A stretch of 64,000 nt of DNA from Candidatus Sulfotelmatobacter sp. (GTDB lineage Bacteria > Acidobacteriota > Terriglobia > Terriglobales > Acidobacteriaceae), in the NCBI GenBank assembly GCA_035307485.1, contig DATGIB010000001.1:161165-225164 (forward strand), read 5' to 3'. Positions 3,905 through 60,765 of this stretch are shown in pieces. Each line of letters opens with the position of its first letter. Within the stretch, counting starts at the first letter, position 1. A program made the translations under genes and the position numbers. The notes beneath the pieces were generated by a model. The model had not been told where the DNA came from. It made no database searches and saw only the letters and a list, made by a program, of their open reading frames with translations.

Positions 3905-5008
3905 TTACTTCAACCCAACTCCGTAGAAATACGTGTAGCTCTGGTTCTGTTGCACCGGCAGCGCGGTCTGGAAACTCGAGAAGATCACCGCGTTCCCCTC
4001 GAACGACACATAGACATCCTGCTGCGAATTCGCGCTCGCGCTGCGGAACGTGAACATCCCGTACAGCGGGTCCGGCAGCGTGCTTGCGGTTCCGTCGTAG
4101 ATGTATGGCGTATCGGCAATTGCCGTCAGCGTGCCCGACGCCATCGTCTGATTCTGGCTGTCGGTAATGGTCACCGCGCCATTCCCGCCGATCACCACCG
4201 TCGCCTTGCCCTCGCCCGCCGTACCGCTTTCGAAGTTGTTCGCTCCCATCTGTGCGTTCACCTTCGTGTAGTAGATCGCCGTGTAGGTCCCGGCCTTCGA
4301 CGCGTCAAAGTCCTTCGACGCAGCCTTGGGTTCACTCAAGATCGTCCCGTTGCCCGTGTCCACCGCAAAAAAGCCATTCTGGGTTCCGAAAACGTATGAT
4401 TGCCCGCCGCCGCTTTCATCAATGACAAAGAAGTTCCCCGAAGCGTCCTCCACGACGCTCGATGCCGGAAAGTTTCCGCTGTTAAACATGCTCTGCTGCT
4501 CGATCACCCCGAACGGCCAGTATCCGGCATGCTGCACATTGCCCTGCGCGTCCACGGTTATGGTTCCAATATCGATGCCGCCAGTCGTCGTGCGCATCTG
4601 GACGTAGTTGAAGTTTTTCCCGGCAAACGTGTTGATGTTGGCAGGAGCGCTCTCGATCGCCGTGATCAGCGCGGCCGTGTCCCGGTTTGGCCCCGCGTTT
4701 GCCGCTTCCACCATCAGCACAGTTCCCGGCACTTCATATCCGGCGAGAAGGTTCCCGTCTGGATCGCTGATGGCATATGTCCCGTCCGCGTTCACCGTGT
4801 ACGGCACCGTGCCGCTCTCCCCGTTCGTGTAGTTCTTGTATGTAATCGTCTGCGCTGTGGAGTCGATAGAGATAGTAAGAAAATCTCCCACCGATGCGGT
4901 GCCGTTATAAGCGCGCACCGTGTTCGCCGGCGCGCCCAGCTTCGACGCCCCATCGCAACTCACCAGGAAACAGGCAATCCCCAACAACACCAATCTCGCA
5001 GTCTTCAT
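3905..5008 (-). CDS. hypothetical lipoprotein
   Basis: Lipobox MKTARLVLLGIACFLVSC. The 367-aa mature part is Gly/Thr/Asn-rich and beta-rich. Confidence 0.6.
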   Translation of the reverse strand: MKTARLVLLGIACFLVSCDGASKLGAPANTVRAYNGTASVGDFLTISIDSTAQTITYKNYTNGESGTVPYTVNADGTYAISDPDGNLLAGYEVPGTVLMVEAANAGPNRDTAALITAIESAPANINTFAGKNFNYVQMRTTTGGIDIGTITVDAQGNVQHAGYWPFGVIEQQSMFNSGNFPASSVVEDASGNFFVIDESGGGQSYVFGTQNGFFAVDTGNGTILSEPKAASKDFDASKAGTYTAIYYTKVNAQMGANNFESGTAGEGKATVVIGGNGAVTITDSQNQTMASGTLTAIADTPYIYDGTASTLPDPLYGMFTFRSASANSQQDVYVSFEGNAVIFSSFQTALPVQQNQSYTYFYGVGLK

Positions 5009-16556: not shown

Positions 16557-18266
16557 ATGAAGAAAGTTCTGATCGCTCTGATTCTTTGTGCGGCAACGCT
16601 GTCATTCGCGGCCGACACCACCAAGCTTTCGCCGGATATACAGAGCATGAAGTCCGCGAAGGCGCCCGTTCAGGTCGTCATCCAGTACCGGAGTGCGCCG
16701 AGTTTGCTAGATCTGAATCTGCTGGGAAGCCTGGGATCGATCCTGAATTCTTTGCCACTGGTAAATGGCATTGTGGCGCAGCTTCCGCTGGCGAATATCC
16801 TTTCGCTTTCGAATCAAAGCAATGTGAAGTACATCAGCCTGGACCGCACACTGTCGCCGAGCTTGAGCAACGCGGCGCCGGCCGTAAATGCTTTTGCGGC
16901 GTGGCAGAGTGGATATACGGGCGCGGGCGTCGGCGTGGCGCTTGTCGATAGCGGCGTCGCCAGCAATTCGGATCTGAATGGCGGCCTCTTGGGGCTTTCG
17001 CGCGTTGTATGGAACCAGAGCTTCGTCCCGGGAAATCCCAGCGCCACGGATCAATTCGGGCATGGAACTCACGTTGCGGGGTTGATTGCGGGGAACGGAG
17101 CCAATTCCACAGGGCCGAACTATACGAAGACTTTCGAGGGAATCGCTCCGAAGGCGAACATCATCAACCTGCGGGTTCTCGACCAGAATGGAGCGGGCAC
17201 CGATAGTGCGGTGATTGCGGCGATCAATACGGCGATCACGTTGAAGCCTCTGTTCAACATCCGCGTACTGAATCTGTCGCTGGGCCGGGCGATCTACGAA
17301 TCGTACACGCTCGATCCGCTGTGCCAGGCGGTGGAAGCGGCATGGAAGAACGGGATCGTGGTGGTGGTCGCGGCCGGAAACAATGGCCGTTATCAGCCGA
17401 CGGATGGTTACGCGACGATCACGGCGCCCGGCAACGATCCTTACGTGATTACGGTGGGTGCGATGAAGACGATGGGGACGCCCACACGCGTGGACGACCT
17501 GATCGCCAGCTACAGTTCCAAGGGACCAACCGTGATCGACGCGATCGCGAAACCCGATATCGTTGCTCCGGGAAATCTTCTGGTGTCGCTCGAAGCTCCG
17601 GGATCGACACTGTACAACGAATATCCCGGAAACCGCGTTCCCTATAACTTTTACGTGCAGGGAGGCAGCAACGCATCGTCGACGAACTACTTCACGCTTA
17701 GCGGGACGAGTATGGCTACAGGCGTGGTCAGCGGAGTCGTCGCCGATCTGCTGCAGAAGAGCCCGTCGCTCACTCCGGACCAGGTGAAGGCGCGGCTGAT
17801 GAAGACGGCGTGGAAGTCGTTCCCGGCGTTCAGCAGCACGACCGATCCGACGACCGGGATCACTTACACCGACCAGTACGACGTATTCACGATCGGCGCC
17901 GGGTACGTTGACGTAGAAGCCGCGATCACCAGTACAGACGTAGCCAAGGGCAGCGCGATGTCACCGGTCGCTACGTACAATTCGACGTCGGGCAACGTCT
18001 ACTTCAATGATTCTGCGAGCGCCGTTTGGAACACGTCGTCCGCTTGGTCGAATGCGGCAGTCTGGGGATCATCGCAGTTTGTGGTTGGTGCGCCGCCCTC
18101 GACGATCAATGGCAGCAACGCTCTGTGGGGAAGCAACGCCCTGTGGGGTTCCAATGCGCTGTGGGGCAGCAATGCCTTGTGGGGCTCGAACGCACTGTGG
18201 GGTAGCAATGCCCTGTGGGGAAGCAACGCTCTCTGGGGAAGCAGCGTTTCTCAAGGCGAGAAATAG
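16557..18266 (+). CDS. secreted S8 (subtilisin-like) serine peptidase with C-terminal GSNALW hexapeptide repeats
   Basis: Signal peptide MKKVLIALILCAATLSFA. Catalytic motifs VALVDSGV, HGTHVAG, SGTSMATGVVSG. Seven perfect GSNALW repeats at the C-terminus. Confidence 0.85.
   Translation: MKKVLIALILCAATLSFAADTTKLSPDIQSMKSAKAPVQVVIQYRSAPSLLDLNLLGSLGSILNSLPLVNGIVAQLPLANILSLSNQSNVKYISLDRTLSPSLSNAAPAVNAFAAWQSGYTGAGVGVALVDSGVASNSDLNGGLLGLSRVVWNQSFVPGNPSATDQFGHGTHVAGLIAGNGANSTGPNYTKTFEGIAPKANIINLRVLDQNGAGTDSAVIAAINTAITLKPLFNIRVLNLSLGRAIYESYTLDPLCQAVEAAWKNGIVVVVAAGNNGRYQPTDGYATITAPGNDPYVITVGAMKTMGTPTRVDDLIASYSSKGPTVIDAIAKPDIVAPGNLLVSLEAPGSTLYNEYPGNRVPYNFYVQGGSNASSTNYFTLSGTSMATGVVSGVVADLLQKSPSLTPDQVKARLMKTAWKSFPAFSSTTDPTTGITYTDQYDVFTIGAGYVDVEAAITSTDVAKGSAMSPVATYNSTSGNVYFNDSASAVWNTSSAWSNAAVWGSSQFVVGAPPSTINGSNALWGSNALWGSNALWGSNALWGSNALWGSNALWGSNALWGSSVSQGEK
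18111..18236 (+). repeat. 7 x 18-bp in-frame tandem repeat encoding GSNALW
   Basis: The units ggcagcaacgctctgtgg / ggaagcaacgccctgtgg / ggttccaatgcgctgtgg and so on differ almost only at synonymous positions, while the peptide is identical in all 7 units. Confidence 0.9.
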
Positions 18267-18283
18267 TCCGAATCAGGGGGGAG

Positions 18284-18315
18284 GCCGCAGTCGAGAGACT
18301 GCGGCTTTTTTCTTT
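18284..18315 (+). terminator. rho-independent terminator after the S8 peptidase gene
   Basis: GCCGCAGTC-GAGA-GACTGCGGC perfect 9-bp stem followed by TTTTTTCTTT. Confidence 0.75.
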
Positions 18316-18351
18316 GGCAGTCTCTCTCGCCGGGAATTCAACGATAAGCAA

Positions 18352-19083
18352 CTAGCGGGCCAGCGAGGTTCTGGCCAGTGCGGCGCGCAATTCGTCCGGC
18401 TTGAAACCGTAGGGGCCGGGATTGCTTTTGTAGACTACGCGTCCCGCGGGATCGATCAGATACATGCGCTCGGGCCAGGCCGTGTAGGCGCTCTCGGTGG
18501 AGTTGCCAAATTCGTCGACGACAGCGGGAATCTCAATTCCCAACTTGCGTACGCATGTGCCTGCCACCGCGGTCCGTTCGTCCTCGCTGCGCGGACTCGC
18601 GAACAAGACTTTGTCCTTGAGATTGCTTTCAGTCTGCCAGACATCGGTGGGATGCGCTTCTGTGATGTAGACGACGAGGAAAGAAACTCGACTTTCATAC
18701 TCGTGATAGAGCTTGTTGAGGGCAGGAACCTCCCGCCGGAACGGCGGTCAGGTATAACTTCCGAAGATGAGAACCGCCGGGCGGCCTTGGGCGGAAAAAG
18801 AGGAAAGCTGCACCGTGCCAGTCTTGTCCAATTTTTCCAAGGTGAAGTCGGGAGCATGATCTCCAATTTCGAGCTTTCCGGCGCGGGCGTGCCGCCACAG
18901 CGTGGAGAAGGGCAGCACGAAGAACGCGTAAGGCTCGGGAACCCGCGCCATCACTCGGCCAAACTGCTCGGGCGGACGGCGCATGATGCCATAAAGTCCC
19001 ATGCAGGCCACGACCCACAGCAGCGCAACGACACACAATCCCGTGAGAACTGCCTTGAGTGCTGATTTTTGCTTTGGGCTCAC
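18352..19083 (-). CDS. iodothyronine-deiodinase-like thioredoxin-fold selenoprotein (in-frame UGA = Sec at codon 112), N-terminal TM anchor
   Basis: Track ORFs 18748..19083 and 18352..18606 are in the same frame. The 141 nt between them has no stop. The only interruption is TGA at 18748-18750, in the context AVLIFGSYT-U-PPFRREV. Downstream YITEAHPTDVWQ and AWPERMYLIDPAGRVVYKSNPGPYGFKPDELRAAL parallel the vertebrate DIO core. Confidence 0.75.
18718..18747 (-). other. candidate bacterial SECIS region (two adjacent hairpins immediately 3' of the UGA)
   Basis: The mRNA reads UGA-CCGCCG-UUC-CGGCGG-GAGG-UUCCUGC-CCUC. That is a 6-bp stem directly after the UGA, then a 4-bp stem with a 7-nt loop. 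The fold was not computed. Confidence 0.4.
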
Positions 19084-44908: not shown

Positions 44909-45772
44909 TTGACGACGGCATATCTCCCAGGTCCTACCGTCGGCGGCCAGTACCTCAACCTGCTGAGCGTTCGCACGCCCGATGGCAAAATCGCGCTTGC
45001 GGCTGCCGTCTTTGACGATATATATCCGGGCAGCAACTTTATCGAAATAACAGACGAGATGTTGCGGGCGAAGCTAAGAAACATCAAAGGACAGTCCCAT
45101 AACGTTTCCGGAACCGGTGACTTTCCTGTCTTCTACTACGAATATTTAATGTGTACGGCTGACTTCAAAGTCTTCTCGAAGACTGGGAAACTTCCAGCTG
45201 TGACCGAAAGAGAACGTCCTGAAAGAGACCGCTTAGCCGATGAGATCATGAAACTTCTGATCAAGCGCCAAACCAGCCTCGCCGACGGGGTCGATACACT
45301 CACCACGATGATGATCAACGTCCTCAAAGACATGTACGAAGGCACAAGGGCGAACGAGTTCAACCTGCTTTGTTCTGATTTCTACGAACAGGTGAGGAGG
45401 TTCTCGGAATCGATGAAGAGTGATCGCTTTTGTCTCATTCCCATAAAGGGTTTCGTGGAAGATACGAAGCACGTACTGAGGAAGCGTGATCGAGTTAGTG
45501 GGCTTCATTTCGGAGTGAAACACTTCTGGCATCGTATCGGGCAAGCCCTTGGTCAGGGCGGTGCGCCTCCCGAACGGGTCCGCCCTTTATCCATTGAAAT
45601 AGGCGAGCTTCTGAAGAGGCGCCCGATCTGCCCCCGCGACGCTTTTAATGGGCTCAACACGGTGATGCTCACCGCCATCGAAGCCACACACGGTCGCGAA
45701 AAAGCGGACCAGTTCGACATGTTTGTCGCTCGTCTCTGCGAAGAGGCAAGCAGGTTGTCGGGGGGTAAGTAG
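44909..45772 (+). CDS. hypothetical protein with an internal ~56-aa duplication
   Basis: TTG start. EIMKLLIKRQTSLADGVDTLTTMMINVLKDMYEGTRANEFNLLCSDFYEQVRRFSE aligns without gaps to EIGELLKRRPICPRDAFNGLNTVMLTAIEATHGREKADQFDMFVARLCEEASRLSG (14/56 identical by hand count). Confidence 0.45.
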   Translation: MTTAYLPGPTVGGQYLNLLSVRTPDGKIALAAAVFDDIYPGSNFIEITDEMLRAKLRNIKGQSHNVSGTGDFPVFYYEYLMCTADFKVFSKTGKLPAVTERERPERDRLADEIMKLLIKRQTSLADGVDTLTTMMINVLKDMYEGTRANEFNLLCSDFYEQVRRFSESMKSDRFCLIPIKGFVEDTKHVLRKRDRVSGLHFGVKHFWHRIGQALGQGGAPPERVRPLSIEIGELLKRRPICPRDAFNGLNTVMLTAIEATHGREKADQFDMFVARLCEEASRLSGGK

Positions 45773-47913: not shown

Positions 47914-47988
47914 GGGCGCTTAACTCAGCGGTAGAGTGCCATCTTCACACGGTGGAAGTCATAGGTTCGAATCCTATAGCGCCCACCA
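47914..47988 (+). tRNA. tRNA-Val (anticodon CAC), CCA encoded
   Basis: GGGCGCT-TA-ACTC-AGCGGTA-GAGT-G-CCATC-TTCACAC-GGTGG-AAGTC-ATAGG-TTCGAAT-CCTAT-AGCGCCC-A-CCA. Canonical cloverleaf. Confidence 0.95.
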
Positions 47989-51103: not shown

Positions 51104-51120
51104 AGCTCAAGAGACCAGTT

Positions 51121-51172
51121 CCCCGTCCTTATCGCGCGCCATTTGCGCGAATGGGCGGGGATTTTGTTTTTT
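51121..51172 (+). terminator. rho-independent terminator after dinB-like gene
   Basis: CCCCGTCC...TCGCGC-GCCATTT-GCGCGA...GGGCGGGG extended hairpin followed by ATTTTGTTTTTT. Confidence 0.65.
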
Positions 51173-51798
51173 GGGACCCTTAGTATTCAATGTGCCGCTC
51201 GGCATATGGATATCTCTGCTTTGGTTCCGCTGCAAGATTTTGGCATCGGTCCGCCGCGCAGCCCGCCAGCAGCGGTTCGTTGAGCGTCAAACAGAGCACT
51301 TCCCAGCGCGAGCGTAGCCAGAAACACGCCTGTGATGCGGCGGAGGTCACCATCGCACTGAAAGTGTGGATGTGATAACAAGCATCGGGTCATGTGATCT
51401 CAAACAACAGGGAGCAGGCGTCTCAACCGTCTCCTTCTCACGAGTCAAAATGCGGGGCGCCGATCAAGCAAAGCCTTCAATCCTTGAACGTAAGCAAGAC
51501 GATAGAGCGATTTGTCTCGCGTATGCGTGCCTCGGCCTCGGTAGGATCCGCTATATTTTCTTTACAAAGTCGTGTGATTTCAGTCACAGGGCGCTGTGAT
51601 CAGCAGCCCGGCGCATTTTAGATCAATCTCGATACCATCCACCCATCTGGAACGCGACTAGAGGGTACTAACCTCAACAGGGCCCACTTTAGGAGTGCAT
51701 TGCATGCGCTTCTGAAGTTCCACACTCGTGCCCGTCGCGAACCACCAAGAGCTTACATAGGAGCAGCATCAGATATGCCGCAACGAACTGATGGCACC

Positions 51799-53199
51799 AT
51801 GAAGAGGATCGCCCTTTTGTTACCGACAATTGTTGGAACCTTTTGCGTACTGTTCTTCGCCGCGGTGTATCCGCCCCAAGCTGAGGCGGTTCCAAGCTAT
51901 GCGCGGCAGACGGGGTTGCCGTGCAGTGGCTGCCACTACACTCCTCCGGAATTGAATCCGGCGGGGCGCAGATTCAAACTGACTGGCTACGTCGATCGCG
52001 GAGACGACACCAAGACTGTAAAAGCTGACGACGGCAAGAAGCGCGCCGCCCTCGATCTGCTCGCGTCACTGCCCTTGTCCGTCATGGTGGAGACTTCCTT
52101 CACCTCGCTCAAGACTGCGCAGCCGCAAACCCAGAATGGCAATTTCGAGTTTCCTCAGGATTTTTCGTTGTTCCTTTCGGGCGCATGGACGAGCAAAGTG
52201 GGCAGTTTTCTGCAAGTGACGTACGACACCCAGGACGACCACTTCACCAGCGACAACACGGATATCCGGTTCGCGGACAAGACGAAGCTGGGGGGCAAGG
52301 AACTGGTTTACGGCATCGATCTTAATAACAATCCCACCGTGGAGGATCTTTGGAACAGCACTCCGGCTTGGGGCTACCCGTGGATTGCAAGCGACAACGC
52401 TCCTACCCCCAACGCTAGTCCTTTCATCAACGGTGGCTTGGCCCAGGACGTAGCGGGACTCGGCGTATTTGGGATGTGGAACAACCATCTCTACCTTGAC
52501 GCTGCCATCTATCGCTCAGAACACGTGGGCGGACCGCAGCCGAACCCCGGGGTGGGCGCGGGCTTCAATATCCGCGGCGTCGCTCCGTACTGGCGCCTGG
52601 CGTGGCAGGAGTTAACAGGAAAGACGCAGTATGAAATCGGAACCTATGGCATGCACCTGCGTTCGACCCCCAATGAAATCACCGATCCCACCGGAGCCAG
52701 CATTCCTACGGATTCGTACACGGACTGGGCAATCGACACCCAAATCGACCGCACCATCGTCAGAACGGACGTGCTTTCATTCCGGGCTACGTACATCCGG
52801 GAAAACAATGATCTGCTGAGCCTGCTGTTTCAGAACGGGCCATTGAGTCCGACTCCGCTGGTGTCGCAAGGTTCACACCATTTGAACACCGTCATGGCCA
52901 ATGCCGAATATCACATCGGCAACAAGTACACGGGAACGGCCGGCTGGTTCAATACGACCGGCACATCCGATCTCAACTTTTATCCCTCGGGGACGGCGGT
53001 GACCGGTAATTTCAATGGCGACCCGCACAGTACTGGATACATTCTGAACCTGTCCTACTGGCCGTGGCAGAACCTGCAACTCGCGGCGCAATACACCGGC
53101 TATACGCGCTTCAATGGCGCTGCGATGAACTACGACGGGTTAGGCCGCAATGCAAGCTCAAACAATACGTTCTATCTGGACGCCAGGATCTTTTTCTAA
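51799..53199 (+). CDS. Cyc2/Cyt572-like fused monohaem cytochrome c - outer-membrane beta-barrel (porin-cytochrome)
   Basis: Signal peptide MKRIALLLPTIVGTFCVLFFAAVYPPQAEA. A single CxxCH (YARQTGLPCSGCHYTPPELNP) within ~15 aa of the mature N-terminus. About 420 aa of alternating beta-strand-like sequence, ending FYLDARIFF (terminal Phe beta-signal). Confidence 0.6.
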   Translation: MKRIALLLPTIVGTFCVLFFAAVYPPQAEAVPSYARQTGLPCSGCHYTPPELNPAGRRFKLTGYVDRGDDTKTVKADDGKKRAALDLLASLPLSVMVETSFTSLKTAQPQTQNGNFEFPQDFSLFLSGAWTSKVGSFLQVTYDTQDDHFTSDNTDIRFADKTKLGGKELVYGIDLNNNPTVEDLWNSTPAWGYPWIASDNAPTPNASPFINGGLAQDVAGLGVFGMWNNHLYLDAAIYRSEHVGGPQPNPGVGAGFNIRGVAPYWRLAWQELTGKTQYEIGTYGMHLRSTPNEITDPTGASIPTDSYTDWAIDTQIDRTIVRTDVLSFRATYIRENNDLLSLLFQNGPLSPTPLVSQGSHHLNTVMANAEYHIGNKYTGTAGWFNTTGTSDLNFYPSGTAVTGNFNGDPHSTGYILNLSYWPWQNLQLAAQYTGYTRFNGAAMNYDGLGRNASSNNTFYLDARIFF

Positions 53200-53267: not shown

Positions 53268-53861
53268 ATGAAAAGCAAGTTCGCAACCAAGACATTCGCT
53301 GTCGTCGCGCTGATCGGTGGACTGTGCGCGGCGGCCTGGGCAGGTGATATCGAGGGCAGAGTCACTGGGATGAAAGGAAAGTCGGTTGTGTACGTTGACA
53401 CGATCGCGGGAAAGACATTCCCGGCACCCAAAGATCATCCGGTTATCGATCAGAAAGGATTGATGTTCAATCCGCACATTGTCGTCGTGCAACAAGGTAC
53501 GACAGTGGATTTCCTGAATAGCGACAACGTCGCCCACAACGTTTTCTGGACGGCGGTGGGCAGCGACAAAAAAGCTGGACACAATCTCGGCACGTGGCCG
53601 AAGGGCGAGAAGCGTTCCTTCACTTTCGATAAGCCAGGGGCAGTGCCACTACTCTGCAACGTTCATCCCGAAATGGCAGGCTACCTGATCGTCAGTCCGA
53701 CGCCATATTTCGCCGAAAGCGACGACAGCGGCAACTACAAGATCAAAGACGTCCCCGACGGCAGCTACTCCCTGGTGGTGTGGCATGAAGGCGCGAAGAG
53801 TCAGTCGAAGGCAATCACGGTTGCCGGCGGTGGCAAGGCTGATTTCACGCTAACAAAGTAA
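53268..53861 (+). CDS. periplasmic type-1 copper (cupredoxin) protein with amicyanin-like ligand spacing, embedded in a CarboxypepD_reg-like beta-sandwich
   Basis: Signal peptide. FNPHIVVVQQGTTVDFLNSDNVAHNV (His ligand) and LLCNVHPEM (C-x2-H-x2-M). The flanking GDIEGRVTG...VVYVD and DDSGNYKIKDVPDGSYSLVVWHEG resemble carboxypeptidase-regulatory-like strands. Confidence 0.7.
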   Translation: MKSKFATKTFAVVALIGGLCAAAWAGDIEGRVTGMKGKSVVYVDTIAGKTFPAPKDHPVIDQKGLMFNPHIVVVQQGTTVDFLNSDNVAHNVFWTAVGSDKKAGHNLGTWPKGEKRSFTFDKPGAVPLLCNVHPEMAGYLIVSPTPYFAESDDSGNYKIKDVPDGSYSLVVWHEGAKSQSKAITVAGGGKADFTLTK

Positions 53862-53971: not shown

Positions 53972-55927
53972 ATGCTGAAGCGATTCAAAAACAAAAAGGT
54001 TGATGGGGATTGGCTACACACAAACTTTCCCTGCATGATGGCATGCCCGGCCCACACGAATGCCGGTCGCTACGTCGGCCTGATTGCCGAAGGACGTTTT
54101 GAAGAAGCCTACCGGCTGGCGCGCGATCCAAATCCTCTGGCCAGCATCTGCGGAAGAGTTTGTGCGCATCCTTGCGAGACCGCCTGCCGTCGTGGCGAAA
54201 TCGATAAGCCGATCTCGATCCGCGCCCTGAAGAGATTTCTCACCGAGCAATACGGCCCCGAATCGAAGCGACCGATCAACGTCAATGAAGGACGCGGCCA
54301 AAAGAAAATCCCTTTCAAGATCGCAGTGGTTGGAGGAGGTCCGGTTGGGCTTTCGGCAGCCCATGACTTGGCCTTAGCGGGCTATGCTGTCACGATTTTC
54401 GAAGCGGCGCCTGTTGCTGGCGGAATGTTGTACCTCGGAATTCCGGAATACAGACTGCCTCGTGATGTTGTCGAAGCACAGGTTCGCGAAATTCTCGAGA
54501 CGGGCGACATCACGCTAAAGCTGAATCACGCAGCCGGACGTGACTTCACAATATCCGAACTTCGGCAGCAGGGATTCGATGCCGTGCTCATCGCGGTAGG
54601 CGCCCACCGCAGCCGCGATCTCAGCATCCCCGGTGTCGATCTTGATGGTGTGCACAAGGGCATCGACTTCCTGCTTAACGTCAACCTTGGTTACAAGTTC
54701 ACGATCGGAAAGAAAGTGATCGTGATTGGTGGCGGAAACGTCGCCATGGACGTTGCCCGATCCGCGGCCCGTGAAGTCGTGCGCCAGCATGCCGGCGGCG
54801 TCGAGGACGTCGAACCCTCCGCTGAAAATGTCTCAGCGGTTGCGACCAAAGAGATGGTCGACATCTCGCTCTCCGCGCTGCGCATGGGCGCACGCGAAGT
54901 GAACCTCGTTTGCCTGGAGCGCCGCAACGAAATGCCAGCCGCTCTGGAGGAAATCGAGGAGGCCGAAGAAGAAGGCATCGTCATTCATCCCGGATTCGGA
55001 CCGAAGCGAGTCATCGGAAAGGACGGAAAGGTTACAGCTCTCGAAACGCTCAAAACGAAATGGGTTTTTGATGAGAATCGTCGCTTCAATCCGGCGTTCT
55101 ATGAGAACAGCGAGACCCAGATCGAGTGCGACACCATCATCATGGCGGTTGGCCAGGCGCCGCGCCTCGACTTCTTGACCCCCGAAGACAAAGTAGATAT
55201 TTCCCCTCGTGGACTGATTGCGGTCAATCCACAGACGCTAATGACCTCGGCGCCCGGCATCTTTGCCGGCGGCGACTGTGTGTTTGGGCCCCGCTTGATT
55301 ATCGATAGTGTTGGCGACGGCAAACGCGCAGCCGTAGGGATTGACGAGTACTTGCGCGGTGGCAAGCATCCGGAACCGGTCATCGAAGTCGAACTACTCG
55401 AACGACACTCCCTGCCACTCGGGTACCTCGATCTCAACCGTCAACCGGTTCCGATGCTGCCTCTTGAACGCCGCACCGGCGTGACGGAAGTGGAAGTTGG
55501 CTACGATGCCGCGTCGGCAATGGCCGAAGCGCAACGTTGCCTTCATTGCTGGGTCAACACCATCTTTGAGGGAACTCCGGAAGATGGCAGCTCGTGCATC
55601 CTCTGCGGTGGATGTGTGGATGTTTGTCCGGAGAAGTGCCTGGAACTCGTTTCGCTCGATCGCATCTCGTTTGAAACAGACACGATTCAGCACATCCGCG
55701 ACAACCAGGAATGCTTCGGCGTCGAGTTCGACGAAGTGAAACCGGACGAACTCGGGATGGTAACGGGTGCGGCTATGTTGAAAGATGAGACTCGGTGCAT
55801 TCGATGTGGTCTCTGCGCGATGCGCTGTCCGGTGAGCACCATCACGATGGAATCGTACAACCTTCTCCCTGCGGAGCCGACTGGTTTGATCTCGATCGCA
55901 GCGATCGGGGCAGGCTTGCAGAAGTAA
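53972..55927 (+). CDS. GltD-like NAD(P)H-dependent flavin/FeS oxidoreductase with C-terminal 2x[4Fe-4S] ferredoxin domain (cytoplasmic)
   Basis: N-terminal Cys clusters (CMMACPAHTN, CGRVCAHPCETACRRG). Two dinucleotide folds (VVGGGPVGLSAAHDLA, VIGGGNVAMDVARSA). C-terminal CILCGGCVDVCP and CIRCGLCAMRCP. No signal peptide or TM segment. Confidence 0.85.
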   Translation: MLKRFKNKKVDGDWLHTNFPCMMACPAHTNAGRYVGLIAEGRFEEAYRLARDPNPLASICGRVCAHPCETACRRGEIDKPISIRALKRFLTEQYGPESKRPINVNEGRGQKKIPFKIAVVGGGPVGLSAAHDLALAGYAVTIFEAAPVAGGMLYLGIPEYRLPRDVVEAQVREILETGDITLKLNHAAGRDFTISELRQQGFDAVLIAVGAHRSRDLSIPGVDLDGVHKGIDFLLNVNLGYKFTIGKKVIVIGGGNVAMDVARSAAREVVRQHAGGVEDVEPSAENVSAVATKEMVDISLSALRMGAREVNLVCLERRNEMPAALEEIEEAEEEGIVIHPGFGPKRVIGKDGKVTALETLKTKWVFDENRRFNPAFYENSETQIECDTIIMAVGQAPRLDFLTPEDKVDISPRGLIAVNPQTLMTSAPGIFAGGDCVFGPRLIIDSVGDGKRAAVGIDEYLRGGKHPEPVIEVELLERHSLPLGYLDLNRQPVPMLPLERRTGVTEVEVGYDAASAMAEAQRCLHCWVNTIFEGTPEDGSSCILCGGCVDVCPEKCLELVSLDRISFETDTIQHIRDNQECFGVEFDEVKPDELGMVTGAAMLKDETRCIRCGLCAMRCPVSTITMESYNLLPAEPTGLISIAAIGAGLQK

Positions 55928-55938
55928 TAAGAGAAACT

Positions 55939-56430
55939 ATGGCGGAAGAAAAAAAAGGTACTTTAAGCGACGAGTTAAATCGGCGGCAGTTTTTCACCAA
56001 ACTTGGTTTGGGGTCTTTGAGCATTGCTGCGGTTGGCACCGCGGCCTTCTCCTATCAGTATCTCGAGCCGAACGTATTGTATGAGCCTTCGCCAATCGTG
56101 AATGCGGGAAAGCCGGATCGCTATCCTCTCGACTCCGTCACTCTCGATCTCAACAACGGAATCTACATCATTCACTCTTCGGAAGGGTATTTCTCCCTAA
56201 GCGCAGTTTGTACTCACCTGGGCTGCTTGACGGCGTGGAAGCAGGAACTGGGCATCATCGCCTGTCCCTGCCACGGCAGCAAATTCGAGACGAGCGGGAA
56301 AAAGATCGAAGGACCGGCGCCCAAGCCGCTTCCGTGGAAGCGCGTCTGGATTAACGACGACGGTGATCTCCTCGTTGATCGTTCAACAGACGTTCCGGCT
56401 CTGGCACGCGATTCATTTGTGAGGGTCTGA
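55939..56430 (+). CDS. Rieske [2Fe-2S] subunit with Tat signal
   Basis: [19 protein letters not shown] Tat signal/anchor. CTHLGC and CPCHGS cluster-binding boxes. ATG 55939 lies 11 nt after the previous stop. Confidence 0.9.
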
Positions 56431-56431
56431 T

Positions 56432-57220
56432 ATGGCAAAAACTGTAGACCAATATTTCGATGACCTTCAGCAGACTCGGGTGTGGCGCTCAATCTTCCGC
56501 AGCGGCACCGGATCGAGCACCCTGAAGCGCGCGCTGGCCATTCAGCAGAACGTTTTCTTGCACCTGTTCTCGACCAAGGTCCGCGTACGCATGTTGAGCT
56601 TCAGCGCGACCTGGTATCTCGGCACTTTGACGCTCGGCACGTTTCTGATCCTCGTCACAACTGGAATTCCCCTGATGCTTTACTACCATCCTTCCGTGCC
56701 GCAGGCCTATGCGGATACCAAAGACCTGCAGTTTGTGGTCTCGTCCGGTATGTTCCTCCGCAATCTGCACCGCTGGTCCGCACACGCAATGGTCTTCCTG
56801 GTCTTCGCGCACATGTTCAAAGTCTTCTACCGTGGAGCCTACCGCACACCGCGTGAATTCAACTGGGTCATCGGGGTCGTTCTCCTTCTTATTACGCTGT
56901 TGCTCAGCTATACGGGATACCTGCTCCCGTGGGATCAGCTGGCGTATTGGGCGATCACGGTCGGATCGAACATCGCCTCCGCAGTTCCCCTCATCGGCGA
57001 CAAGATTCACTTCCTCCTCCTGGGTGGACACGCGGTAAACGCGAATGCTCTGCTTCGCTTCTACGTTCTGCACTGCATGATCCTGCCACTTACCGCGATG
57101 TTTTTCGTCGCAATTCACTTCTGGCGAATCCGCAAAGACGGCGGCCTCTATAACCACGACTGCGAGCCGGCAGCGGTTCGCTACAGGAATGGCGGCCCCG
57201 CCCCAAAGGAGACGAATTAG
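56432..57220 (+). CDS. cytochrome b, N-terminal (b6-like) subunit
   Basis: Four-helix core with haem His pairs ([20 protein letters not shown] and [23 protein letters not shown]). Starts 1 nt after the Rieske stop. Confidence 0.9.
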
Positions 57221-57222
57221 CC

Positions 57223-57930
57223 ATGGCTGACCCGAAAGATTTCATCGCTGGCGTCGATTCGAATGCGAAGAAGTCTCCCCGGCGCATCGTCTTTATCACG
57301 CGCCGCACGTCGGCCCATGTCAAAGCCGCCACGGAAGAGCAAATTCAGACGTTTCCCGAAGTGCTGTTCCGCGCTGCTGTCGCCGTTATGACTCTGGCGA
57401 TCGTACTCGTCTGGATCGCGCTTCTATTCAACGCGCCACTCGAAGGACTTGCGGATCCATCACACACTCCGAATCCCGCTAAGGCCCCGTGGTACTTCCT
57501 CGGATTGCAGGAGATGTTGCACTACTTCCCGCCGGTCGTGGCGGGTGTTCTCGTCCCGGGATTGGTAGTAATGGCGCTGATCGTCATTCCGTACTTCAAG
57601 GTGAATATCGAGGCTGAGGGACTGTTTCTGAGAGATCGCAAGCGGCGGCTGCGGATCTTCTACCTCTTCGCGAGCGGACTCTCGCTTTTCCTGTTGATCT
57701 TCAGGGTTTACGCGGCGCTGGGCCCAACCTTGATCATGGCTGGCCTCATGCTGTTTGCAGCGCAGAGTTCGCCACAGTCGACCTCGAGACCCCAGCGCTA
57801 CCTCGCAGCACGGCCTCTCTCTTACTGGGTGATGACCTGGTTCTTATTCGAGCTGGTGGTGCTCACCGCCATTGGCACTTTCTTCCGCGGACCGGGCTGG
57901 TCTTGGGTCTGGCCGTGGCAGGGTTCATAA
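57223..57930 (+). CDS. cytochrome b C-terminal / subunit-IV-like membrane subunit
   Basis: PNPAKAPWYFLGLQEMLHYFP (the PEWYFL-type motif of cyt b C-terminal / PetD) followed by TM helices. Starts 2 nt after the previous stop. Confidence 0.8.
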   Translation: MADPKDFIAGVDSNAKKSPRRIVFITRRTSAHVKAATEEQIQTFPEVLFRAAVAVMTLAIVLVWIALLFNAPLEGLADPSHTPNPAKAPWYFLGLQEMLHYFPPVVAGVLVPGLVVMALIVIPYFKVNIEAEGLFLRDRKRRLRIFYLFASGLSLFLLIFRVYAALGPTLIMAGLMLFAAQSSPQSTSRPQRYLAARPLSYWVMTWFLFELVVLTAIGTFFRGPGWSWVWPWQGS

Positions 57931-57946
57931 CGAGGATGCGGCGATC

Positions 57947-60034
57947 ATGAAAGAAAAACTTGCGTCGCTCTGGCAGAAGTTATTCGGAGACAGCGTTCGG
58001 GCCTTCGGCGTGGTCAGCGTGATTTTCTTGGTATCGACGGCCATTGCACCGGCCAAGAACTTCTTCAGCGAGTGGCGCGATTATCAGCGCGGTTACTTGA
58101 AAACGATTCGCAACCGCAGCGACGCCAACACCCTGCAGCGGCATTTTAGCGGCGGTATCCAGCAAGTCTGGCTGCCGGAACTCGGCGTGGTTGACCGCTG
58201 CACCAGCTGCCACGTGGGACTCAAAGAAGCCAGCCTGAGCGATATCCCCACGCAGCCGTATCGCAAGCACCCGGCAATTCCACACAATCTCGATCAATTT
58301 GGCTGCACCACGTGCCATCGTGGCCAAGGTGCAGCGACTACGGTCTCCGACGCGCATAGCAGTACGCTCGCCTGGGAGCAGCCGCTCCTACCCGCCAGGT
58401 ACATCGAGTCTTCCTGCGGGCAATGTCATCGCGGACAACTCCCCGGAACCCCTCAGCTCAATGAAGGACGGGCATTGCTGGCGCGGGAAGGCTGCCTGCA
58501 CTGCCATACGGTGAAGTTGCCCGATGGCAGCACGCTGAAGGCAACTGACGATCCTCCGTCCCTGTCGCACATCGCCGACAAAACGTCGCGCGAGTGGATC
58601 TTTGCCTGGCTCAAAGACCCGCAGGCCTACGCGTCGACCTCAACAATGCCGAATTTCAAGTTGAGCGACGATGATGCGCGCGACGTCTCCGCATTCCTGA
58701 TCGCCAATAGCACACCTCTTGCGGGAGACACAGCAACGGTTTCCGCCAAGTCGTCATCCGATCCCGCGGCTGGAGCGAGTTTGTATGGGGAGTCGTTCTG
58801 CGCCTCGTGTCACGCGGTTCAAAACGCTGCGGGCAACATGGTAGGCGGCGACGTGGGACCGGAGTTGACCCGTGTCGGAACCAAAGTAAAGCCAGAGTGG
58901 CTGCAGGCTTGGTTGCGGAATCCGCGAGTCTACCATCCGGAAACCGGCATGCCGCACTACCGGTTTAACGATGCTCAAATAGCAACGCTTGCGGGATTTC
59001 TTCAGAGCAAAGCCGACTCTGATTTTCTCGCCAGCGTTCACCTCGATGCGGCAACTCCTGAGCAGATCGCGCACGGCAAGCGTCTCGTCTCTGATTTTGG
59101 CTGCGCATCCTGCCATGAGATCGCAGGGATCAAGAAGCCCGAGAACTTCGCTCCCGAGCTAAGCCGCATCGGCAGCAAACCTGTCACGCAACTCATCTTC
59201 CTGCCCGGCATGCCGCAGACCTTGCCCGATTACATCGCGGGGAAGATCAAGAATCCGCGCGCATTCTCTCCGGGCCTGAAGATGCCGCAATACACCTTTG
59301 CGTCGCAGCAGATCGATGCACTCACCACTGCTTTACTATCACTGAATGAGCGTTCGTATTCGCTGCCACTATCCCTGCAAGTCCCGGGCAGGGTAGAAAC
59401 GGATTATCAGCCCGCCGGAAAAGCGGGAAAACTGATGACAGATCTGGCCTGTTTCAGTTGCCATCGCATCAACGGGCACGGCGGAGACATGGCGCCGGAC
59501 CTCACGTCGGAAGGCAGCTCAGTTCAGCGCGAATGGTTGGTGCAGTTTTTCAAAAACCCTGGGACGCTCCGTCCGGCTCTCATCCGTCGTATGCCTCGGT
59601 TCAATTTCACTGACAGCGAAGCCAACGAACTCACCGATTACATTATGACGGTTTATCAGAGCCCAAAAGTCGACCGCGACTCGATGCCGCTCGGAGGGTA
59701 CCCACAAGGACAGATCGAGCTCGGCAAACAGCTCTTCTACGGAAAATATTCGTGTCAGGGCTGCCATATCGTAGATACGAAAACCGACAAAGGCTACATC
59801 GGGCCGACATTGACACATGTCGGATCCCGGCTGACAGCAGCATGGATTTATCAGTGGATGAAGAATCCGCAATCCTTGCGTTCTGGAACCGCCGAGCCAA
59901 ATCGGTCCATGAGCGACGAAGATGCAGGTGCGCTCACCGCGTTTCTGATGTCGCAAAAAGGGGGAGAGAAATTCTCCGGCGGAGCAAAGGCCGCAAAAAC
60001 GGGCTTGCATATTCAGGAGGTCGCAAAACGATGA
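57947..60034 (+). CDS. membrane-anchored octahaem c-type cytochrome (3 closely spaced haems + 5 class-I-like cytochrome c modules)
   Basis: N-terminal TM helix (AFGVVSVIFLVSTAIAPA). Eight CxxCH motifs: CTSCH, CTTCH, CGQCH, CLHCH, CASCH, CASCH, CFSCH, CQGCH. The last five are each followed by GP.L...G...W...WL.NP...MP.F-type segments. Confidence 0.85.
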   Translation: MKEKLASLWQKLFGDSVRAFGVVSVIFLVSTAIAPAKNFFSEWRDYQRGYLKTIRNRSDANTLQRHFSGGIQQVWLPELGVVDRCTSCHVGLKEASLSDIPTQPYRKHPAIPHNLDQFGCTTCHRGQGAATTVSDAHSSTLAWEQPLLPARYIESSCGQCHRGQLPGTPQLNEGRALLAREGCLHCHTVKLPDGSTLKATDDPPSLSHIADKTSREWIFAWLKDPQAYASTSTMPNFKLSDDDARDVSAFLIANSTPLAGDTATVSAKSSSDPAAGASLYGESFCASCHAVQNAAGNMVGGDVGPELTRVGTKVKPEWLQAWLRNPRVYHPETGMPHYRFNDAQIATLAGFLQSKADSDFLASVHLDAATPEQIAHGKRLVSDFGCASCHEIAGIKKPENFAPELSRIGSKPVTQLIFLPGMPQTLPDYIAGKIKNPRAFSPGLKMPQYTFASQQIDALTTALLSLNERSYSLPLSLQVPGRVETDYQPAGKAGKLMTDLACFSCHRINGHGGDMAPDLTSEGSSVQREWLVQFFKNPGTLRPALIRRMPRFNFTDSEANELTDYIMTVYQSPKVDRDSMPLGGYPQGQIELGKQLFYGKYSCQGCHIVDTKTDKGYIGPTLTHVGSRLTAAWIYQWMKNPQSLRSGTAEPNRSMSDEDAGALTAFLMSQKGGEKFSGGAKAAKTGLHIQEVAKR

Positions 60035-60765
60035 GATTCTATATCGCCCTCCCTCTGGGATTTGTTCTGCTCGGAATTTCATGCTCACGCAAGGCGGCAC
60101 CGACACCTACCCTCAAACCGACGGGTGTGGGCGCAGCGATTGTGGAATCGAGCGGCGGAAAACAGCTCGCTCAAACCGGAGCTCCTCTCCTGCAGCCAGT
60201 GGTCGTACAGGTCAACGACGAGCGGGGAAGCGCAGTGGAACGCGCACTGGTTGAGTTCTCTGCGGCGCCGGGGGTGATTCTTGACCCGCCGAGTGCACTT
60301 ACTGACTCTAGCGGCCAGGCAACGACCAATGTTTCTCTCGGTGGAATGGCGGGACGGTATCAGATCACGGCGTCGACCTTCGACAAATCCCGCAAGAAGG
60401 TTGAACTCAAGCTGGAGGAAATCGCTCTCGGATATCAGCAAACGCTCGGCCGTCATCTGAACGATCAATACTGCGACCGCTGCCACAATTCCGAATCTAC
60501 AGCCCAACGTGTCTCGAACTATGACAACCTGGAAGTGAAGCCGCATCCGTTCAGTGAAGGCGAGACTCTGAATAAGATGACCGACGCCGATTTGACAGCC
60601 ATCATCACCAATGGCGGCCCTGCTCTGCAGAAATCCGCATTGATGCCAGCTTGGGGAAACACGCTCGGCAAGTCAGACATTCAGGCTTTGATCGCGTACA
60701 TCCGCGCTGTTTCCGATCCTGCCCCCAGAGATGCGGGGCCGCTTTATTCGCCGACGCCTCATTAG
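60031..60765 (+). CDS. lipoprotein with bacterial Ig-like (Big_1-type) domain and C-terminal monohaem cytochrome c
   Basis: Lipobox LLGISC. Big-like segment (PVVVQVNDERGSAVERALVEFSA...DSSGQATTNVSLG). CDRCH haem site and a distal Met in LMPAWG. ATGA overlap with the octahaem gene. Confidence 0.7.
   Translation: MRFYIALPLGFVLLGISCSRKAAPTPTLKPTGVGAAIVESSGGKQLAQTGAPLLQPVVVQVNDERGSAVERALVEFSAAPGVILDPPSALTDSSGQATTNVSLGGMAGRYQITASTFDKSRKKVELKLEEIALGYQQTLGRHLNDQYCDRCHNSESTAQRVSNYDNLEVKPHPFSEGETLNKMTDADLTAIITNGGPALQKSALMPAWGNTLGKSDIQALIAYIRAVSDPAPRDAGPLYSPTPH

Follow-up and report, generated by a model that had tools for sequence, protein, structure and literature searches.

What does a homologue of Cyc2, a widely used marker gene for microbial iron oxidation, do in a soil bacterium of the Terriglobia, whose members count among the commonest bacteria in acidic soil and in peat, and in which direction would it pass electrons? 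The question is raised by a cyc2-like gene in a stretch of 64,000 nucleotides of Candidatus Sulfotelmatobacter sp. (contig DATGIB010000001.1, positions 161,165 to 225,164), which is called the window below. Comparison of genomes shows that this predicted Cyc2-family porin-cytochrome is coupled, both genetically and regulatorily, to a cupredoxin and to a b6f-like complex with an NAD(P) module. Synteny and a shared operator show cyc2 to be the outer-membrane end of an electron path that is encoded by the operon.

The gene lies within a single open reading frame (51700-53199, plus strand). From an internal ATG at 51799, where homologues begin at an equivalent methionine, it encodes 466 residues, consisting of the signal peptide MKRIALLLPTIVGTFCVLFFAAVYPPQAEA followed by VPSYARQTGLPCSGCHYTPPELNPAGRRFKLTGY and ending in YLDARIFF. 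A first-pass annotation, made from the letters of the window alone, had read the same cleavable signal peptide, mature start and C-terminus, and its coordinates and sequence proved identical. It had also pointed to one CxxCH near the mature N-terminus. This motif is indeed the only one present (residues 42-46, i.e., residues 12-16 of the mature chain), and the single further cysteine of the protein lies within the signal peptide. A cleavage junction of the form A-x-A followed by (V/I/L)PS, which in the window protein is MKRIALLLPTIVGTFCVLFFAAVYPPQAEA followed by VPS, is common to nearly all cluster representatives of the family. A single CxxCH is found at the same position in 120 of 120 close relatives, in 111 of the 113 cluster representatives of at least 365 residues and in all 119 diverse profile matches. 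Counted over the whole sequence, a single CxxCH occurs in 350 out of 352 relatives that have 365 residues or more, and in the full-length representatives (at least 400 residues) exactly one stands directly after the signal peptide (111/111). Because the placement is kept across relatives, representatives and profile matches, it is not due to chance.

Cyc2 proteins have been defined by a signal peptide, one CXXCH, a length of at least 365 residues and a 16-strand porin (Keffer et al., 2021; PMC8406198). The same study describes a motif AXPXFAR[Q/K][T/Y] ahead of the haem site, which is called unique to Cyc2, and a PXL behind it. With its 466 residues the window protein exceeds this length, and its haem region, AVPSYARQT-GLP-CSGCH-YTP-PEL, presents the published signature in register, with Tyr replacing Phe. 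AVPSYARQT agrees at eight of nine specified positions and stands three residues ahead of the Cys, while the literal PXFAR pattern fails. The Tyr occurs in 114 of 120 close relatives, against five with the strict Phe. In the wider family, the Phe is present in 66 of 113 cluster representatives and in 90 of 119 diverse profile matches, and the consensus of the full-length representatives reads A/VPSFARQTG(M/L)xCxxCH(T)xFPELTxFGRxFKLNGY (slash, cleavage). Judging by these alignments, the Tyr is treated as a conservative variant specific to the Terriglobia clade. Between CH and PXL there are three residues in the window protein and in most of its family, and four in Cyc2 of the Zetaproteobacteria. 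Nearly all relatives, representatives and profile matches that were compared end in F, W or Y.

The family is large, with more than 5800 matches in a collection clustered at 90% identity. At E <= 1e-3 it comprises 2579 clusters of 50% identity, 390 of which reach 1e-30. Searches of Pfam, NCBIfam and PDB sequences with the protein and with the family profile gave nothing useful. The sole match in these searches, a multihaem cytochrome aligned through its signal peptide and haem site, was at chance level and was rejected. Homology to validated Cyc2 was addressed directly through the mass-spectrometry peptides of Cyc2(PV-1) listed in Table S1 of PMC8406198, with which the zetaproteobacterial Cyc2 sequences were retrieved. 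The PV-1 haem peptide QTGAACLSCHFQTFPALNAFGR is found exactly in protein P0488 of Mariprofundus ferrooxydans. With BLASTP, the window protein matches P0488 over residues 25-139 (E 3e-15, 32% identity). When the family profile is aligned with a profile of 44 zetaproteobacterial Cyc2 sequences by hhalign, the match (99.8%, E 1e-27) extends over 373 columns and includes the barrel. Full-length identity to homologues from Burkholderiales and Acidiphilium is 30-37%, which lies above the identities of 15-23% between Cyc2 clusters (Fig. S7). As the pairwise alignment reaches only the N-terminal part, the window protein appears, by sequence, to lie clearly outside Cluster 1 of Cyc2.

The remainder of the protein is predicted to be a barrel. 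AlphaFold2, run on an alignment of 144 sequences, gave a model with a mean predicted local distance difference test score (pLDDT) of 90.2 and a predicted template modelling score (pTM) of 0.86, in which a small helical haem region precedes 16 long strands over residues 93-465. The best PDB matches of this model in Foldseek are 16-strand porins (probability 1.0), and the matches include OmpT/OmpU, chitoporin, OprO and Omp32. Among these, OprO (4RJW) is the template that has been reported for Cyc2 (PMC8406198); the PDB holds no Cyc2 structure. The layout predicted by the model is thus a monohaem cytochrome c of about 60 residues fused to a 16-strand porin. The first-pass annotation had proposed a beta-barrel behind the haem site and, from the architecture, a Cyc2-type protein. 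The 16 modelled strands and the porin matches bear out the former, and the motif in register, the two alignments with zetaproteobacterial Cyc2 and the 16-strand model the latter. What it had named as evidence to the contrary, i.e., a lack of Cyc2 matches together with a predicted fold other than a closed barrel, or homology to another characterised outer-membrane protein family in which the CxxCH is not conserved, was looked at as well; a Cyc2 match, a predicted barrel and a conserved CxxCH were found instead. The gene product is very probably a member of the Cyc2 family that is exported by Sec and resides in the outer membrane.

The genomic context of the gene was studied in the best 80 species-representative genomes, which were found with a nine-sequence alignment and compared by tblastn. 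These are the closest Acidobacteriota, and no reference iron oxidiser is among them. They belong to Terriglobia/Acidobacteriaceae (Ca. Sulfotelmatobacter, Terracidiphilus or Granulicella) with one exception, which agrees with the acidobacterial background suspected in the first-pass annotation; the closest has 91% identity. The exception (L069, 58% identity) is labelled Verrucomicrobiia, the sole non-acidobacterial label among the 80, and may reflect a binning error or a transfer.

In 66 of the 80 genomes, a set of Rieske and cytochrome b genes adjoins cyc2. The full gene order of the window, with cyc2 first, is seen in 42 loci, and in 16 others the same seven genes are present with cyc2 last. 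Two loci have the cyc2-first order without the flavoprotein gene, and in six cyc2 is followed by a different, compact complex of Rieske protein and a cytochrome b/c fusion. Of the remaining loci, three have cyc2 with the cupredoxin only, three lie on contigs that are too short to tell, and in eight the Rieske/cytochrome b set is not nearby. The cupredoxin gene adjoins cyc2 in about 60 loci. The genes that flank the operon differ between loci and none of them is conserved.

Besides gene order, a putative operator links the genes. The perfect palindrome TGTGATTTCAGTCACA, which has the form of a CRP/FNR-family site, is located upstream of cyc2 and has no second perfect match in the window. Its consensus is TGTGA(T/C)-N4-(A/G)TCACA and its general form TGTGA-N6-TCACA. 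In 44 of 50 cyc2-first loci, a site with at most one mismatch is present within 800 nucleotides upstream of cyc2, against a background frequency of 0.11 per kb. In the cyc2-last loci, the site stands upstream of the first gene, which is the cupredoxin gene, in 13 of 13 cases, and upstream of cyc2 in none of the 13. The operator tracks the first gene and not cyc2, and therefore cyc2 is, on this comparison of upstream regions, regulated as a part of the operon by a putative CRP/FNR-type factor. Most of the further cyc2 arrangements in Acidobacteria are likewise preceded by the site. Loci with the compact complex have it at about -150 to -340, and most loci without the complex at about -670 to -800. 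A scan of the upstream regions of sister-clade and proteobacterial cyc2 loci gave no such site, and no gene for the regulator was found among the window's open reading frames that were scanned.

The intergenic stretch ahead of cyc2 (51104-51798) is unusually long with 695 nucleotides and has no Rfam match. As sigma-54 activators neighbour several of the loci, a sigma-54 promoter was sought as well; the consensus scan gave matches at chance level, none of them upstream of cyc2. Scans for sigma-70 promoters and for terminators around cyc2 likewise stayed at chance level.

Features of the cyc2 operon in the window (positions in the window; strand as given)
Feature	Position	Strand	Basis
Putative operator of CRP/FNR-family type, perfect palindrome TGTGATTTCAGTCACA, 211 nucleotides upstream of the cyc2 ATG	51573..51588	.	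Pattern scan
cyc2-like gene: predicted fusion of a monohaem cytochrome c with a 16-strand porin of the outer membrane, 466 residues	51799..53199	+	Open reading frame reading, homology, motif, AlphaFold2/Foldseek
Signal peptide, residues 1-30, predicted cleavage between AEA and VPS	51799..51888	+	Sequence reading
Cyc2 signature: AVPSYARQT (residues 30-38), CSGCH (42-46), PEL (50-52)	51886..51954	+	Motif definition of PMC8406198
Predicted beta-barrel, residues 93-465, 16 long strands, ends in ARIFF beta-signal	52075..53193	+	AlphaFold2 secondary structure, Foldseek
Secreted type-1 copper cupredoxin (amicyanin/plastocyanin-like) with C-terminal CarboxypepD_reg Ig-like domain	53268..53861	+	Domain and structure-library searches
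FAD flavoprotein of the cytoplasm, NfnB/GltD-like and NAD(P)-binding, flanked at either end by 4Fe-4S domains	53972..55927	+	Pfam Fer4_20, Pyr_redox_2 and Fer4
Rieske 2Fe-2S subunit, RRQFF twin-arginine motif, CTHLGC...CPCH	55939..56430	+	Domain search and motif reading
Cytochrome b6-type subunit	56432..57220	+	Pfam Cytochrome_B (4e-44); PDB cytochrome b6 of b6f complexes (~1e-45)
Subunit IV (C-terminal part of cytochrome b)	57223..57930	+	Pfam Cytochrom_B_C
Membrane-anchored octahaem cytochrome c, 8 CxxCH	57947..60034	+	Domain search, CxxCH count
Probable lipoprotein that combines a Big_1 Ig-like domain with a single cytochrome c domain	60031..60765	+	Domain search; lipobox-like LLGISC from sequence reading

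The seven genes that follow cyc2 on the same strand are separated by gaps of 68, 110, 11, 1, 2, 16 and -4 nucleotides. The cupredoxin has the complete set of type-1 copper ligands (His90, Cys130, His133 and Met136), and its best matches are amicyanin, plastocyanin and the cupredoxin domains fused to NirK. Rusticyanin was considered as an identity and rejected, as no rusticyanin model or structure matched in Pfam, NCBIfam or the structure search. The flavoprotein, which has no signal peptide, matches NCBIfam PRK12771 at 9e-136, and its closest relatives in the PDB are NfnA/NfnI and GltD-type modules. Neither in the operon nor among the open reading frames scanned in the whole window were oxidase or carbon-fixation genes found. 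The remainder of the window encodes functions of a heterotroph, among which aldehyde, proline and 3-hydroxyacyl-CoA dehydrogenases, a PEP carboxylase and proteases. Four further long open reading frames, which encode 287-459 residues (710-2089 and 3905-5008 on the minus strand, 18007-19065 and 44909-45772 on the plus strand), have no Pfam match, and some may not be genes. The sole RNA gene that Rfam finds in the window is tRNA-Val(CAC) at 47914-47988.

Other arrangements are found in individual loci and in more distant relatives. In locus L070 (9902-16062), the genes behind cyc2 encode a Rieske protein and a fusion of cytochrome b with a cytochrome c domain, and after these come a GMC oxidoreductase and subunit 3 of a gluconate 2-dehydrogenase. 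In L076 (9447-11401), a locus without the Rieske/b set, a monohaem cytochrome c of 122 residues is encoded ahead of cyc2. A sister clade with 46-48% identity (L091, L093 and L094, metagenome contigs) has the order cyc2, unknown gene, cytochrome c, NfnB-like protein, Rieske protein, cytochrome b, cytochrome c. Its second gene product counts 160-180 residues and matches BamE, faintly, in one locus of the three and not in the other two, its cytochrome b is unsplit (434 residues), its final cytochrome c counts about 400 residues, and sigma-54 two-component regulators are located upstream of the operon in two of the three loci. Proteobacterial homologues have the classical neighbours, i.e., a pair of cyc2 and a dihaem cyc1-like gene. 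On plasmid pACRY03 of Acidiphilium cryptum JF-5 (L087, 7890-10186), a Cyc2 homologue with the variant PAFAAQT lies beside a c-type cytochrome. A plasmid deposited as Acidithiobacillus ferrooxidans (CP084173.1) gives a match with identical statistics, which suggests a transfer or a mislabelled record. On plasmid pSBC1_3 of Caballeronia sp. SBC1 (L088, 8001-9281), the coding sequence annotated as 'cytochrome C' begins with VSFPELT, past the haem motif. The tblastn match begins 72 nucleotides earlier, so the start was probably mis-called and the CXXCH lost; a HiPIP (high-potential iron-sulfur protein) gene and a c-type cytochrome flank it.

The gene alone is a further member of a known family, since surveys based on FeGenie already flag Cyc2 in metagenome-assembled genomes of Acidobacteriota (PMC13594681); its operon context is of more interest. 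A literature search yielded no description of this operon, of its gene-order variants or of its operator. The genome paper on Sulfotelmatobacter names no more than a "quinol-cytochrome-c reductase" and reports a lack of genes for iron metabolism. This paper and a second one on acidobacterial genomes (PMC5900883) take the complex for a plain complex III or leave it unmentioned. The operon suggests an unstudied route by which soil Acidobacteria exchange electrons with extracellular iron.

The electron chain is probably reversible. Tentatively, outward flow from quinol to Fe(III) is favoured over Fe(II) oxidation as its physiological direction. The Rieske/cytochrome b complex would oxidise menaquinol, and the high-potential electron would pass from the Rieske protein to the c haems, the cupredoxin and finally the Cyc2 haem. 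The latter would reduce Fe(III) that comes into the pore in soluble or complexed form; in acidic soils this ion is a strong acceptor. The electron of low potential would return to the quinone pool, or NAD(P)+ would be reduced via the flavoprotein, as has been proposed for the analogous anammox complexes. This direction is preferred because the operon holds a quinol-oxidising complex and no terminal oxidase, and because bifurcation of the anammox type needs the high-potential branch as a sink. For anammox Rieske/b complexes that contain this NAD(P) module as well, it has been argued that the high-potential electron is driven outward, where it meets a favourable acceptor (PMC12954380). It is also preferred because, for anaerobic At. 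ferrooxidans, it has been proposed that Cyc2 receives electrons from bc1 and rusticyanin and serves as the terminal Fe(III) reductase (PMC8790237), and because Acidobacteriaceae isolates reduce Fe(III) (PMC8790237) while complete mtr/omc operons are absent from the acidobacterial genomes that have been investigated (PMC5900883). In acidic soils of the tropics, Acidobacteriia contribute the dominant share of the genes for Fe(III) reduction (PMC7980381). In addition, the Cyc2 homologue of the Fe(III) reducer A. cryptum JF-5 and the otherwise heterotroph-like window without carbon-fixation genes are counted for outward flow. A more specific reading, which is rather unlikely, takes the Cyc2 of acid-soil and peat Terriglobia for no iron oxidase at all. 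It would be the last enzyme, a ferric reductase, in a self-contained respiratory module under CRP/FNR control, with one electron of menaquinol going via the octahaem protein, the cupredoxin and the Cyc2 pore to dissolved Fe(III) and the other reducing NAD(P)+ at the NfnB-like subunit. Such a quinol-bifurcating Fe(III) respiration would account for the iron reduction by Acidobacteriaceae, in which complete mtr/omc operons are lacking.

Several points weigh against this account of the protein and of its direction. Every Cyc2 that has been tested biochemically, i.e., Cyc2 of At. ferrooxidans, Cyt572 of Leptospirillum and Cyc2 of PV-1, was assayed as an Fe(II) oxidase (PMC8406198; PMC7029218). Haem attachment and barrel closure are predictions, and in the window's sequence the Tyr in place of the Phe of PXFAR departs from the strict Cyc2 pattern. 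All 80 carriers are metagenome-assembled genomes, and no cultured Fe(III)-reducing acidobacterium is among them. The mechanism by which anammox complexes would produce NAD(P)H is itself unproven, and a heterotroph has no obvious need for NAD(P)H made from quinol.

The enzymology just cited speaks at the same time for the opposite direction, as Fe(II) oxidation is the activity of every family member that has been characterised biochemically (PMC8406198; PMC7029218). Here Fe2+ would enter the pore and be oxidised by the Cyc2 haem, and its electrons would go to the cupredoxin and the c haems. Most would continue to a terminal oxidase encoded elsewhere, and some would run backwards via the Rieske/b complex into quinone and NAD(P)+. 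Such a route would repeat the 'uphill' branch of At. ferrooxidans from Cyc2 over rusticyanin to bc1 and would supplement the energy of a lithoheterotroph. The list of parts, which parallels Cyc2, rusticyanin, the petI bc1 complex and the NAD-linked SdrA (PMC10654088; PMC8790237), fits this route, and so does the pairing, in some acidobacterial paralogues, of a small cytochrome c with cyc2 as in iron-oxidising bacteria. FeGenie-based surveys, moreover, class the Acidobacteriota genomes as iron oxidisers (PMC13594681). However, the literature search yielded no report of cultured Fe(II)-oxidising Terriglobia, and the lack of oxidase and carbon-fixation genes in operon and window does not favour this direction either. 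In known iron oxidisers, cyc2 groups with cyc1/cox and not with complex III. With the high-potential branch as donor, the NfnB-like module could presumably only consume NAD(P)H or would need a large proton-motive force. Altogether, Fe(II) oxidation is a real but doubtful possibility.

Two further explanations concern the substrate and the redox role as such. That the conduit serves a different dissolved redox partner of small size, for instance Mn, Cu or a quinone or humic shuttle of low molecular weight, is quite improbable. It draws on the quinone-like organic matter in which peat and acid soils are rich, on an analysis that defines the architecture and not the substrate, and on the presence of Cyc2 in the electrode oxidiser Tenderia electrophaga. 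On the other hand, the modelled pore of Cyc2 is very narrow and suits ions such as Fe2+ (PMC8406198), and a non-iron substrate has been shown for no member of the family. The least credible explanation, an ordinary diffusion porin with an incidental CxxCH and no redox role, could appeal to the lack of a Pfam or NCBIfam model and to the likeness of the barrel to general porins. It is effectively refuted by the CxxCH and its flanking motif, which are essentially invariant in about 350 sequences, and by the position of the gene, in dozens of species, amid redox-protein genes with which it is co-regulated.

If outward flow is true, i.e., if Cyc2 is hard-wired to a quinol-oxidising complex and acts as Fe(III) reductase, surveys based on this marker misread these genomes as iron oxidisers, and the iron reduction of Acidobacteriaceae, which so far has no mechanism, gains one. 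The operon moreover adds, beside anammox, a second system for testing whether electrons from quinol are bifurcated to NAD(P)+ by complexes of Rieske/b proteins and an NAD(P) flavoprotein. Since PSYARQT (51886-51912) fails the literal PXFAR[Q/K][T/Y] filter of the 2021 reference tree, the clade may be missing there.

Compared to known systems, the protein itself resembles in design Cyc2(PV-1) and the other Cluster 1 proteins, which come from neutrophilic iron oxidisers. They share a signal peptide, an N-terminal haem in the context A-x-P-x-(F/Y)-A-R-Q-T...CxxCH...PxL and a 16-strand porin of about 400 residues, and the profile-profile homology spans both the haem domain and the barrel. They differ in that pairwise similarity to the window protein is detectable over residues 25-139 only, in the C-terminal residue, which is aromatic in the window protein and mostly M or L in the zetaproteobacterial proteins, in the Tyr for Phe, in the spacing between CxxCH and PxL (three and not four) and in the gene neighbours. 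Cyt572 of Leptospirillum is likewise a monohaem outer-membrane cytochrome of the Cyc2 family. This link is based on literature only, according to which Cyt572 derives from a dense cluster of the sequence network with homologues from Acidobacteria and Nitrospira (PMC10654088). In MtrCAB, PioAB and MtoAB, electrons also cross the outer membrane via a haem protein housed in a barrel. These systems have a 26-strand barrel and a separate decahaem protein, by which solid minerals can be reached, whereas the window protein is predicted to combine one haem and 16 strands in one polypeptide and is therefore probably limited to dissolved species (PMC8406198).

At the level of the whole operon, the kinds of parts are those of At. 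ferrooxidans with its Cyc2, rusticyanin, CycA1, petI bc1 and SdrA, i.e., a Cyc2 in the outer membrane, a cupredoxin in the periplasm, c-type cytochromes, a Rieske/b complex and a protein linked to NAD. The iron chain of this organism is thought to be bidirectional (PMC10654088; PMC8790237). At. ferrooxidans has separate rus and pet operons and an aa3 oxidase, whereas the acidobacterial set is a single operon without oxidase. Its cupredoxin resembles amicyanin and plastocyanin, has an additional Ig-like domain and matched no rusticyanin model, and its complex is b6f-like, with a split cytochrome b and an octahaem subunit. In domain content, the genes behind cyc2 resemble the clusters Kustd1480-85 and Kuste4569-74 of Kuenenia stuttgartiensis, each of which unites a Rieske protein, a b6-type cytochrome b, subunit IV, a multihaem cytochrome c and a cytoplasmic NAD(P) flavoprotein. 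For these complexes, bifurcation of quinol electrons has been proposed, with NAD(P)+ and a P-side acceptor of high potential as the two targets (PMC12954380). In Kuenenia the P-side partner is an HAO-like enzyme in the anammoxosome, whereas here it would be a cupredoxin and an outer-membrane Cyc2. The unusual composition of the Kuenenia-like complex is thus found, at 53972-60765 of the window, in a soil heterotroph.

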